A stretch of DNA of 64,000 nucleotides from an uncultured Clostridia bacterium (GCA_934182465.1 CAKPRG010000001.1:273549-337548); one strand, 5' to 3'; shown: positions 56,198 through 61,184, counted from the first letter of the stretch. Notes: a model not told the origin generated them from the sequence alone. Program-made: numbers and translations.

Positions 56198-59100
56198 ATG
56201 AATAAAAAAATGTTAATCTCAATAGCATTAATTTTCGTTATGTTATTGAACTATGTCGTACCTTTTTCATTAGCATATGATGAAGCAACAAGCGATATAG
56301 AAATTACATTTAATGGCAATTTGTATGCAGCAATTAAAAAGAATTTAGTTGATGCAGGTATAGATGCTTCAGAATATAATGATGCACAACGTACTATGAA
56401 AATTAGCCAATCTGCTATAGATAGTGTAACAAGTTTCAACTTATCTAATAGTGGTATATCTGATTTAACAGGATTAGATACATTTAAGAATGTAACTTCT
56501 TTAGACTTGTCAGCTAATGAATTAGATTCAGACAGCAATCTAGAAGTATTAAATTCATTAAATTTAAAATTTCTAGATTTATCATCTAACAAACTTTCAG
56601 ATGTTAGTATGATAACAAACATTTCTACAATTCAAACATTAAACTTACATAACCAAAAGTTTAATATAATTCAAATTGTAGAAATTGATGAAGAAACTGA
56701 ATCAGACCAATTAGTAGAAGCAACATACGATTTACCTCAAATTTTAAGCTATGGTGGTTTATTAAAACCAGAATGGTTACCAGAAACAAAATATCAAAAT
56801 GGTTCAAATCCAGCACCATATGTTAATTGGACAAAATTTGATGGTAAAAAAATTACAATAACAACTGGTTCAAAATCAGAATCAAATTATACACCATATT
56901 ATGGAATGACAAAAGTAGGAGTAGAAGTAACTGATTCTACAAATACATTATACAATTCAAAAATTAATTTATACTATATAACAGTAAGTTCTGATGAAAG
57001 AGGAATTATCTTTAAAGATGAAAATCTTTATAAAGCTGTTAAAGAACAATTAACAAAAGCTCAAACTGTAAATACAGATTTAAGCAAATATACTGATAAA
57101 GGAAATTTATATGCAAGAGCATATGATGAACCATTAGTATTAGTTGTTAGTATAAACGATTTAATTAACAAAATTCCAAGTTTAAAATTAGTAGACAGAA
57201 AAATTAAAGATCTAACAGGATTAGAAATGTTTGTTGGACTTGAAAAAGAATTAAACTTAGAAGGAAACTATATTGAAGATATAGAAAAAATAATTGAACT
57301 AAAGAGAAAGAAACTTGAAGAACAAGAAAAATTAAGAGCTAAAGTTCAAAAACAAATAGCATATATTAAAGAAAGTGTAGATGCTATTGAAGAAGCAAAG
57401 AAAAATGTGGAAAGTGAAACTAAAAAAGTTACTACATTAGTAACAGAAGAGCAAACTTTAAAAACAGAAATTTCAAAATTAGAAGATGAAATTAATACTT
57501 TAAATGCAGAAACAACAACATTAAATAATAATTTACCAACATACAAAACAACATTAGAAAATGCAAAAGATAATTTAGCACAAAAACAAAATGAATTAAC
57601 ATTATTAAATAATGAGTTGGTAACATTAAATAATAATTTATCAAAAGCATCAACAACTGATGAAAAAGACAAAATAAAAGCTCAAATTGAAGCTAAAAAA
57701 GCAGAAAAAGAAGCAAAACAAATTGAAGTTGATCAAGCAAAAGATGCTGTAACAACAGCAGAAAAACAAGTAACTGATACAGAAGCAAAAATAAAATCAA
57801 ACACAGAAGCAGTTACATCAAAAACAAAAGACTTAAATAGTAAAAAAACAGATTTATCTAAAAAATCAAATTCTATTAGTGAATCTTACCAAGTAATTGC
57901 TAACAACAATAATACAGCTGATTTACATAGAGAATATTTAAAAGCAAAATTAGCAAGATTATATGAAATATATAAAAAATCTTATAAATTAGCTAGACTT
58001 GCAACAGTACAATTAAGTACATTAACAGATGAAGAATTTGAAAATTTAACTTATGAAAATGCAAAAAGTATTTTTGAAGCACAAACATCAAGATTAGCTG
58101 ATATAGAAAATAATTTAGCAGCTTATGAATCTTCATATGTTATTAAAGAATTTAATATACCAACACTATCAAATGTAACAGTAAATGGTGATACAGAAGG
58201 AACATCATCAACAAAAACAGTTGCAATTGAAAATCCAATAGCTACATATTTTAAAGAATATGCAAAAAATCATGAAGATTGGAAATTATCTGACATAAAA
58301 GGATTCTTATTAAAAGTAAGATATATGTCAACAGTATTAGAAATGATGAATTATTGTACAATTGAAAGATTATACAATGGAACAACAACATGTTATGCAG
58401 AAGAATACTTAAATAGTGAAATTGCAACAAAAACATGGAATGGTGAAAGTACAAGTGATTTAACAAAAATTAAATCAAATTTAAATACAATTAAATCAAC
58501 TTTTGCAGACACATATGGACATCAATGTACAGGAGCTGTATCTTATGATGGAAATAATGATATTTACGCATTAGCTAAAAAATATAGTACAGCAACTTCA
58601 GAAGAAATAAATGCTTATGTAACAATACCAATGTTAAAAGTTTTAAATGTTAGAAGAAATCTAATTGAATCAATTGATGGAATTGAAGAATTAGATGAAT
58701 TACAAGAATTATATGCAGGAAATAATGAACTTGTAAATATTGAAAGTGTTGACTGGACAAAAATGGTAAATTTAAAGAAATTAGATTTATCATATAACAG
58801 TATAAGCGAAATTAAATGCTTAGAAGTTTTAGCAAAATTAGAAGAATTAGATTTATCTAAAAACTTAATTGCAGGTGCATTTAACTTTACTATCTCTGGA
58901 ATGCCAAAATTGAAAAAATTAAATATGTCATACAATGCAATTAATGATATTGAATATTTAAGAACACAATTAACATTCGTAGCAAGAGGTGAAGGATTTG
59001 ATGATATAGCATCATACTTAAATGCAGGAAAATTTGATGTAAGATTTTACGGTCAAATATTATCAATGAACTTAGATTTAGTTCAAATGGGTAGAGCTAC

Positions 59101-60122: not shown

Positions 60123-61184
60123 ATGAAAAAGAAATCAATAGCAGTATTAAGTTTATTAATTATTATGTTACTTTGCAGTTCTGTATATGCAGCTTTTGAT
60201 GCAGATTTTCAATTAGCTTATAATAAAAAAGAAGTAAAAGCTGGAGATACAATTACAGTAACATTAAAAGTATTAAATATTACAGGAACAGATAAAGGAG
60301 TAGAAAATATAGAAGGATACATAAATGTAGACGAAAACATTATCGAACCTGTAACATCAAAATGTATAAAAACAGATGAAAATGGAAAAGTTGAAATCGG
60401 AGATATGAAATTAGACTTACAAGATATTACAAATGCAACAGCATCAGATACAGTTCAAGAAAATGGTGTAACATTTAATTCAAAACCATTATCTGGAAAT
60501 GATGCAAAATTCATAATCGATTTACCAACACCAATTAAAACTGATACAGATACATTAGTAATGAATTTTAAAGTAAAATCTAATGCATCAGTTGGAACAA
60601 TTAGTAAAGCAATTAAATATGATATGCTTGTAATGTACTCAGGTGAAGAAAAAACAGTATCAGCATCTGGATCTTTAGATATAACAGTTGAAAAATCAGA
60701 AGAACCAACACATGAACATAAATGGGTTGAAGATAAAGCAAAAAGTAAAGCAGCAACATGTACAGAAGATGGATATACATATTATGTATGTAGTGTATGC
60801 AATGAAACAAAAACAGAAACAATAAAAGCAACAGGACATAAATTTGGAGATTGGAAAGTAACTAAAGAAGCTACAACAACTTCAGAAGGACAAAAAGAAA
60901 GAACATGCTCAATATGTGGTGAAAAAGAAACACAAGCAATTGCAAAATTAACAGACAATAACAAAAATAATAATACAGGAAATACAAATAATACAACAAA
61001 CAATACTGCTAACAATAATACAACAAATAGTCAAAATATTATAAATAGTAGTACAAAAGATAAAACAACAGCAAATAAAACATTACCAGCAGCAGGTGCT
61101 AGAAGAATAATTATACCAGCACTAATGCTAATTGCTATAGCTTATGCATGCTATAATAAATATATGAAATATAAAGGTATTTAA
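60123..61184 (+). CDS. Cell-surface protein with an N-terminal cohesin-like domain, two CxxC ribbon-like repeats, an N/T-rich stalk and an LPAAG sorting-signal-like tail
   Basis: Signal peptide. Cohesin-like FQLAYNKKEVKAGDTITVTLKVLNITG...EGYINVDENIIEPV. Repeats ATCTEDGYTYYVCSVCNETK and RTCSICGEKET. C-terminal LPAAG, hydrophobic segment, KYMKYK. Confidence 0.7.
   Translation: MKKKSIAVLSLLIIMLLCSSVYAAFDADFQLAYNKKEVKAGDTITVTLKVLNITGTDKGVENIEGYINVDENIIEPVTSKCIKTDENGKVEIGDMKLDLQDITNATASDTVQENGVTFNSKPLSGNDAKFIIDLPTPIKTDTDTLVMNFKVKSNASVGTISKAIKYDMLVMYSGEEKTVSASGSLDITVEKSEEPTHEHKWVEDKAKSKAATCTEDGYTYYVCSVCNETKTETIKATGHKFGDWKVTKEATTTSEGQKERTCSICGEKETQAIAKLTDNNKNNNTGNTNNTTNNTANNNTTNSQNIINSSTKDKTTANKTLPAAGARRIIIPALMLIAIAYACYNKYMKYKGI

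Follow-up and report, generated by a model that had tools for sequence, protein, structure and literature searches.

Does the dockerin of a leucine-rich repeat (LRR) protein find its cohesin in the product of the gene next door? The question is raised by a stretch of 64,000 nucleotides from an uncultured Clostridia bacterium (GCA_934182465.1 CAKPRG010000001.1:273549-337548), hereafter the window, in which two neighbouring genes at positions 56198-61184, here called A and B, encode an LRR protein with a C-terminal dockerin and a protein with an N-terminal cohesin and a C-terminal sorting signal. Cohesins and dockerins owe their fame to cellulosomes, which they hold together; non-cellulosomal uses have been catalogued as well, but for few of them are partner and function assigned. 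Gut and rumen Firmicutes encode many LRR-dockerin proteins, and in the sole systematic screen most of those assayed bound no tested cohesin (PMC5301203). We consider it likely that A and B together make up one surface protein, split over two genes and assembled non-covalently, in which a sortase-anchored cohesin would capture a calcium-dependent dockerin cargo. An earlier note had pointed to the pair as a candidate two-gene surface-display system, and both open reading frames (ORFs), of 1252 and 353 amino acids (aa), were recovered where it had placed them:

56198-59956, + strand: gene A, secreted cargo protein of 1252 aa with LRR blocks, putative helical stalk and dockerin (ORF; Pfam LRR_4, LRR_8, LRR_EndoS and Dockerin_1)
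60123-61184, + strand: gene B, candidate anchor protein of 353 aa with cohesin, stalk and sorting signal (ORF; homologs and alignment)

Dockerin, cohesin and sorting signal

We began the argument at the C-terminus of A, where two modules follow one another:

59552-59761, + strand: conserved beta-module directly before the dockerin, residues 1119-1188 (AlphaFold2 (AF2) strands at model positions 10-79, predicted local distance difference test (pLDDT) >90)
59762-59953, + strand: dockerin, residues 1189-1252, type-I-like, with two calcium-loop plus helix segments (PF00404; predicted fold)

The C-terminal tail (GDVNGDGLANALDSNLIKAYRAEI...ADINQDGKVDAIDSRLLLYHRAEI) holds two 12-residue loops with D, N, D, G, N or D, and D at positions 1, 3, 5, 6, 9 and 12, the first of which (DVNGDGLANALD) is followed by the helix SNLIKAYRAEI and the second (DINQDGKVDAID) by the helix SRLLLYHRAEI. 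PF00404 matched residues 1189-1240 with 43.8 bits (E 3.1e-11) against a gathering score of 22.9. The last 143 aa of A, which comprise the module and the dockerin, were modelled with AF2 from an alignment of 28 homolog C-termini; the model reached a pLDDT of 91.2 and a predicted template modelling (TM) score of 0.84. Its three-helix part superposes on the Clostridium thermocellum type I dockerin 2ccl_B with a TM score of 0.90 (0.8 Å, 59 columns) and on the type I dockerin 1ohz_B with 0.91, the root-mean-square deviation being 0.8-0.9 Å across both references. Profile and predicted fold justify the type I label that the earlier note had put on this tail.

The beta-module was found in all A orthologs and in a set of small adaptor proteins described below, and wherever it was seen it accompanied a dockerin of the same LLLYHRAE type. 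The model predicts that it packs rigidly against the dockerin. A fold search of the module plus dockerin against the PDB returned no match to known X-modules. We had considered a type II/III X-module-dockerin (XDoc) dyad and rejected it, as the fold search did not support it.

For B, the features that bear on the pairing are the following:

60123-60191, + strand: signal peptide, residues 1-23, ...SSVYA|AF (read by eye; AF2 helix 3-19)
60192-60692, + strand: cohesin module, residues 24-190 (family-level profile, predicted fold)
60714-60947, + strand: Cys/His-rich beta module, residues 198-275 (phmmer to 9qa6_A; AF2 pLDDT 83-93)
60948-61082, + strand: N/T-rich disordered linker, residues 276-320 (composition; AF2 pLDDT <50 over 281-329)
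61083-61181, + strand: C-terminal sorting signal, residues 321-353 (LPAAG, hydrophobic segment, NKYMKYKGI tail)

The signal peptide reads MKKKSIAVLSLLIIMLLCSSVYA, and its V21-Y22-A23 is almost invariant in the B family, for which a homolog search with B gave 626 homologs. PF00963 matched 12 of 24 aligned full-length family members at E<=0.01 (best 4.5e-9), and the family profile gave weak cohesin matches among PDB sequences (5lxv, E 0.017; 3ul4, E 0.4). The AF2 model of B, built on the family alignment, is confident over residues 25-280, and cohesins predominate among its Foldseek matches in the PDB. In this predicted structure the N-terminal domain is a nine-stranded flattened beta-barrel of the jelly-roll kind, superposable on solved cohesins, and the family-invariant residues E/D64-G-Y-I-N68, F118-N119, N126, F149 and K152 fall in predicted strands 3-6. 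By family-level profile and predicted fold, the N-terminal domain of B is a cohesin.

Behind the cohesin, residues 198-275 match the C-terminal part of the Thomasclavelia ramosa IgA protease 9qa6_A (phmmer, E 1.2e-4), and no Pfam model covered this stretch in a scan of B. The module is restricted to the closer B orthologs and absent from more distant ones; it is a probable zinc-stabilised stalk domain of the kind called 'periscope'. As a separate observation, the Cys/His repeat (H.H.W..ATCTEDGY..C..C / GH..G.W..T.EG..R.C..C) is common to hundreds of proteins of 400-600 aa (P0027-P0120 among the homologs) at 45-60% identity, and many of these proteins bear cohesin or Big_2 domains.

At the C-terminus, LPAAG (residues 321-325) is followed by the hydrophobic segment ARRIIIPALMLIAIAYACY and then by NKYMKYKGI, with an AF2 helix at 327-350. 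B thus combines a signal peptide with a hydrophobic segment and a positively charged tail, and in the column of LPAAG other B orthologs carry LPATG, LPKTG, LPNTG or IPATG. The stalk and sortase-type sorting signal that had been placed after the cohesin both find support, the former in the 9qa6_A-like module and the latter in the hydrophobic segment, the charged tail and the LPXTG motifs of orthologs; LPAAG itself has Ala in place of Thr.

Conserved adjacency and a second, diverged pair

Relatives of the locus were gathered by fetching the surroundings of B homologs in metagenome assemblies and by scanning one genome per GTDB species. The 39 loci obtained yielded 32 gene pairs, from about 26 species-level gut metagenome-assembled genomes (MAGs) plus metagenome contigs (about 30 species), while the other seven, truncated or partial matches, had no extractable pair. 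All hits lie in MAGs of uncultured gut Clostridia from human, mouse, rabbit, sheep and deer, some of them named Candidatus Scatovivens. In all 32 pairs the cohesin/LPXTG gene has, 14-271 nt upstream, a large ORF ending in dockerin calcium loops, and the adjacency is kept while the identity of the cohesin protein falls to about 35%. The side-by-side encoding of cohesin and dockerin described by the earlier note is thus seen throughout the pairs examined, and it recurs in a paralogous pair to which we return below.

The dockerin itself is under strong purifying selection. The best-conserved block of 25 residues in A sits within it (identity to the window 0.71, and 0.56-0.71 for the module as a whole), the duplicated calcium-loop plus helix pattern is kept in 32 of 32 gene pairs, and the helix residues LLLYHRAE and LIKA[YH]R are nearly invariant over the same pairs, so that conservation extends beyond the calcium ligands alone.

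In most loci the pair stands in one syntenic block composed of a WG-repeat gene, a gene of unknown function, acpS, tatD, A, B, lemA and an M48 peptidase gene. A homolog search with A gave 150 homologs, most of which share the architecture of LRR and C-terminal dockerin. We also looked among them for LRR proteins with an LPXTG motif of their own in place of the dockerin, as in a Rosetta-stone test, and found none; the apparent non-dockerin LRR homologs proved to carry a degenerate dockerin subtype.

These last proteins form a paralogous or sister LRR clade, whose different dockerin subtype (...TGDG....DILKLNQYRL...) scores 14-16 bits with PF00404. Their genes lie in a neighbourhood unrelated to the A-B block (L040:6001-10338 and L042:6001-10580, also L041 and L043), in the order adh_short, CBM53, LRR gene, a gene here called X, abhydrolase, Mur ligase and Ddl. 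The product of X has a signal peptide, a cohesin, an immunoglobulin (Ig) stalk, an N/T linker, LPKTG, a transmembrane segment and a KKYKGI tail. Two X paralogs were tested with PF00963, of which that of L042 scored 31.4 bits against a cutoff of 24.1 and that of L040 gave no Pfam cohesin match; Gram_pos_anchor reached 16-17 bits in the X paralogs, short of its threshold of 20. The X cohesin is about 30% identical to that of B. As judged from the sequences, two independent loci keep cargo and anchor adjacent while both interaction modules diverge together, and this co-divergence is the strongest indirect evidence that we obtained for a specific pairing. We argue for a function beyond inherited synteny because the dockerin is conserved down to its helix residues and because the paralogous pair has co-diverged.

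As a side observation, the window itself holds an adh_short gene (2468-3196) and a CBM53-like gene (3293-3763, minus strand); an S24/HTH repressor-like gene and a VanW protein gene come next, and no second pair is present there.

A proposed assembly, its alternatives and known systems

The arrangement of modules suggests the following course. B would be exported and most likely attached to the wall by sortase through LPAAG, the hydrophobic segment and the basic tail, and its single type-I-like cohesin would be held off the wall by the N/T-rich linker and the Cys/His stalk module, probably zinc-stabilised. A would be exported separately, and its dockerin, packed on the family-specific beta-module, would plug into the cohesin of B in a calcium-dependent manner. 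Docking would display the two LRR blocks and the long helical stalk of A at the surface as a ligand-binding, adhesin-like device. The in silico checks support the earlier note's reading of the pair. We infer the binding of A to B, its calcium dependence, the processing by sortase and any ligand of the LRR blocks; the host-binding or cell-cell interaction role given to the complex by the earlier note is speculation.

Several points weigh against this assembly. The cohesin named in the earlier note stands on the family-level profile (12 of 24 members) and the fold, whereas the window copy of B itself gave no PF00963 match even at E<=1 and no significant NCBIfam match, so that the cohesin profile search which the earlier note had named as a refuting test would, taken by itself, have come out negative. 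The LPAAG of B, which is also found in its closest relatives, has Ala where LPXTG has Thr, and no sortase was found among the ORFs scanned in the 64-kb window. Adjacency within one syntenic block could partly reflect inheritance and not selection, and the B cohesin need not be exclusive to A, given that the A-type dockerin occurs on other proteins. Finally, most LRR-borne dockerins of Ruminococcus flavefaciens bound no tested cohesin (PMC5301203).

Three alternatives have to be set against these points. The first keeps the docking and changes the anchor: B would stay uncleaved, its C-terminal helix would keep it in the cytoplasmic membrane, and linker and stalk would reach through the wall. 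The Ala of LPAAG and the lack of a sortase in the window fit it, as do the long AF2 helix of residues 327-350 and the outcome of the anchor searches, in which no hidden Markov model for Gram_pos_anchor or LPXTG anchors (Pfam, NCBIfam) matched window B at threshold. Distant orthologs and paralogs, however, have canonical LPATG, LPKTG and LPNTG at the same position, with the hydrophobic segment and the basic tail, and a plain transmembrane anchor would have no need of the conserved L-P-x-x-G frame; we hold membrane retention to be quite improbable.

The second alternative concerns exclusivity, and bears on how widely the dockerin of A is used. An exhaustive search of representatives with this dockerin gave 2763 matches, and the closest single-dockerin ones were mostly proteins of 1000-1900 aa with the dockerin at the C-terminus, presumably LRR orthologs; when homologs were sought with the dockerin alone, the yield was 22 short gene-call fragments, uninformative about other cargos. 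The A-type (LLLYHRAE) dockerin is also borne by a BspA-type LRR_5/Big_3 protein (P0358) and by proteins of about 300 aa that consist of signal peptide, cohesin, beta-module and dockerin (P0327, P0387 and P0394) and look, by their domain order, like adaptor scaffoldins. At 18 nt downstream of each adaptor gene begins a gene whose product has an N-terminal dockerin of a different subtype followed by Ig (Big_3/Big_2) repeats:

L035:255-2597, adaptor gene and N-terminal-dockerin gene
L036:709-3060, adaptor gene and N-terminal-dockerin gene
L039:286-1575, adaptor gene and N-terminal-dockerin gene

Cohesin and dockerin genes therefore stand side by side more than once, multi-tier non-enzymatic assemblies are probable in some relatives, and the wording 'two-gene system' may understate the case, given the adaptors and the other cargos with the same dockerin subtype. 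The cohesin of B could then be a general wall socket for several dockerin proteins whose genes lie elsewhere in the genome, with A as one client and maybe not the main one, and with the adjacency reflecting shared locus ancestry. The BspA-type protein and the adaptors speak for such a socket, and so do the multi-tier assemblies implied by the second dockerin subtype and the many dockerins bound by R. flavefaciens ScaE. Against this, the window and the flanks of ±7-10 kb of about 30 loci hold a single dockerin gene and a single cohesin gene, and the paralogous pair has its own adjacent, co-diverged cohesin instead of sharing B. The adaptor genes, moreover, come from short contigs of related low-GC bacteria. 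On balance we find a shared socket unlikely.

In the third alternative the two proteins do not meet at all: the dockerin of A would be a calcium-stabilised C-terminal module that binds another partner, a carbohydrate or nothing, and B an independent sortase-anchored beta-sandwich protein of the adhesin or pilin-like kind. The R. flavefaciens dockerins that bound no tested cohesin lend it some weight, and the near-invariant helix residues and the co-diverged paralogous pair stand on the other side; we regard it as very improbable.

Among known systems, the closest analogue of the proposed A-B assembly is CttA-ScaE of R. flavefaciens. ScaE is a single-cohesin LPXTG protein, and the binding protein CttA, whose gene belongs to the same sca cluster, attaches to it by its dockerin (PMC2930009, PMC5301203). 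In both cases the C-terminal dockerin of a non-enzymatic binding protein mounts, or would mount, on a single-cohesin anchor protein, the sorting signal being LPXTG in ScaE and LPAAG in B. The two differ in that CttA has a type III X-module-dockerin with insertions, whereas the dockerin of A is type-I-like and its beta-module unlike known X-modules; in the cargo, which is carbohydrate-binding modules in CttA and LRR plus putative coiled coil in A; and in that ScaE also anchors an enzyme cellulosome, whereas no dockerin-bearing enzymes were seen with A and B in the window. Membership of the pair in the type III/XDoc class was ruled out by the fold comparisons.

The scans of window proteins gave no glycoside hydrolase, carbohydrate esterase or polysaccharide lyase family, and the sole dockerin protein of the window is non-enzymatic. 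B carries a single cohesin and no multi-cohesin scaffoldin was seen in the window. As far as the window shows, the pair does not qualify as a cellulosome or amylosome, and the non-cellulosomal character proposed for it agrees with the lack of any dockerin-bearing carbohydrate-active enzyme there. OlpA and OlpC of C. thermocellum are anchors with a single type I cohesin that are held by S-layer homology (SLH) domains and have cellulosomal enzymes as clients. They differ from B in SLH anchoring as opposed to a sortase signal and in enzyme clients as opposed to LRR cargo. In Clostridium perfringens, NanJ and NagJ/GH84C are secreted glycoside-hydrolase toxins whose cohesin and dockerin modules join one enzyme to another. 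Unlike what is proposed for A and B, these are not known to form an anchor-plus-cargo pair, to include a cohesin protein with LPXTG or to carry LRR cargo.

A has the architecture of the 'SIGN-LRR-Doc' proteins of R. flavefaciens FD-1, a strain in which 28 LRR modules were counted among the dockerin proteins (PMC2930009). The likeness lies in the signal peptide, the LRR and the C-terminal dockerin; the difference is that no dedicated adjacent cohesin gene has been reported for them and that they are without the long putative coiled coil and the pre-dockerin beta-module of A. The Listeria internalins, which are LPXTG- or GW-anchored, are likewise surface-displayed LRR proteins for binding, but they carry their anchor on the same polypeptide, whereas the anchor of A would be the separate protein B. 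The term 'internalin-like' of the earlier note is apt as far as generic LRR similarity goes and fails as a family assignment: NCBIfam inl_like_NEAT_1 matched A with E 3.8e-13, its 48.6 bits, from an alignment confined to the LRR stretch 801-918, lying far under the cutoff of 1275, and membership of A in that family was ruled out on this score.

For the stalk of B the comparison is with CTD2 and CTD4 of the T. ramosa IgA protease, Cys/His zinc-binding 'periscope' domains by which a functional head is held away from the surface (PMC12415215). The C-terminal part of that protease shares the H..W..ATCT..G..C..C repeat with B residues 198-275, a likeness that is not mapped to the CTD2/CTD4 boundaries. 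The projected head is a protease there and would be a cohesin in B, in which the module is dispensable. No description of the A-B pair was found in the literature searched, and no member of the A or B family is named in the databases searched.

Cargo architecture, surroundings and significance

The remaining features of A are those of the cargo that docking would display:

56198-56275, + strand: signal peptide, residues 1-26, MNKKMLISIALIFVMLLNYVVPFSLA (read by eye: basic N-region, hydrophobic core, S-L-A cleavage-type site)
56426-56692, + strand: N-terminal LRR block, about residues 77-165 (Pfam LRR_EndoS 80-162, 31 bits, cutoff 27.9; LRR_14 77-154)
57266-58159, + strand: Pro/Gly-poor helical, coiled-coil-like region, residues 357-654 (composition, heptad contrast, weak profile matches)
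58598-58972, + strand: C-terminal LRR block, about residues 801-925 (Pfam LRR_8 834-891, LRR_4 858-891; NCBIfam inl_like_NEAT_1 partial 801-918)
59348-59533, + strand: N/T-rich low-complexity linker, residues 1051-1112 (NNTVDNNVT-type repeats in the translation)

The LRR assignment comes from Pfam (LRR_4 84.6 bits, LRR_8 45.4 bits), and the N-terminal block is well conserved among A orthologs (identity 0.53-0.62). The helical region between the blocks is the most variable part of A, with an ortholog identity of 0.04-0.26 and a varying length, the gaps being centred on residues 451-500. Residues 357-654 have no Gly and a single Pro (P447), the heptad contrast is maximal at 386-525, and weak matches to SMC/Rad50/TPR_MLP1_2-type profiles (Pfam, NCBIfam) extend over residues 329-640. 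Composition, heptad contrast and SMC-like matches are consistent with the coiled coil already proposed for this region, which we infer to be a helical stalk, possibly an antiparallel hairpin.

The linker is encoded by a tandem repeat at 59352-59533 with a period of 27 nt (9 aa), 6.8 copies and 79% matches according to Tandem Repeats Finder (TRF), and the length of the linker region differs among orthologs; the repeat is a likely slippage hotspot that would alter the reach of the cargo. Separately, in the cluster formed at 90% identity around the A ortholog P0123, several members (P0412, P0413, P0416, P0419 and others) measure 845 aa, not 1233 aa, and in L013 and L023 the dockerin-bearing ORFs upstream of the cohesin gene span just 249-822 aa. 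A frameshift, or a break introduced by assembly, may affect gene A in some genomes.

A and B are separated by 166 nt (59957-60122), and hairpins were predicted in this spacer and downstream of B:

59972-60007, + strand: hairpin of 15 bp between A and B (RNA fold dG -20.2 kcal/mol, z -10.3)
61202-61235, + strand: terminator-like hairpin 3' of gene B, 11-bp stem followed by UUUUUGU (RNA fold z -4.8)

The hairpin in the spacer has a perfect stem with one G-U pair and is followed by an A-run, not a U-run; it lacks the form of a canonical terminator, and attenuation or stabilisation of the transcript is a possible role. A scan for sigma-70 promoter and terminator consensus was uninformative at 26% GC (39 sites against 45 expected). 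The Rfam scan of the window gave four tRNAs as its sole matches, at 840-1108 (+) and 9883-9955 (-), three of them clustered, and no match near the A-B pair.

With a GC content of about 26% throughout and genes that include mreBCD, PBP (penicillin-binding protein), minC, spoIIE, acpS, tatD, lemA and an M48 peptidase gene, the window is ordinary chromosome of a spore-forming Firmicute. Upstream of the pair, the genes at window positions 51756-54563 encode the WG-repeat protein (506 aa) and an unannotated protein of about 420 aa with a C-terminal transmembrane segment; they lie directly upstream of acpS-tatD-A-B in all relatives examined, including L001, L003 and L006. Further upstream, the + strand carries at 22978-48911 a run of four giant ORFs (1917, 2457, 1724 and 2417 aa), whose products all have a signal peptide, contain SdrD_B/DUF11-type domains and finish with a transmembrane helix and a basic tail; in two (28744-36117 and 41658-48911) SPPTG stands just ahead of the helix, a sorting-signal type distinct from the LPAAG of B. 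We take this SPPTG to resemble the (S/P)PXTG motif of Clostridioides difficile SrtB substrates. The giant ORFs suggest that a large locus for adhesins or fibres lies about 7 kb upstream of A and B.

SIGN-LRR-Doc proteins were already known; what the pair adds is a candidate cohesin partner and a putative minimal, enzyme-free display system in an uncultured gut lineage. Since a dedicated cohesin/anchor gene lies beside an LRR-dockerin gene in about 30 species and at two paralogous loci, the question of the partner becomes directly testable with two small recombinant modules. More tentatively, it is possible that these gene pairs, in the present lineage and in relatives with adaptor proteins, belong to a general enzyme-free 'adhesosome', in which sortase-anchored single-cohesin stalks would carry exchangeable LRR/coiled-coil proteins in mutually specific, side-by-side encoded pairs, the paralogous ones being orthogonal to each other, and adaptors would extend them to multi-tier non-catalytic scaffolds in some species; gene adjacency would then supply the missing cohesin partners for widespread 'orphan' LRR-dockerins. 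If A and B do assemble as proposed, they would offer new orthogonal cohesin-dockerin pairs for protein engineering. Uncultured host-associated Clostridia would have a modular way to mount, and possibly swap, adhesin-like proteins, and A would be a candidate colonisation factor of a lineage that lives in human, rodent, rabbit and ruminant guts.

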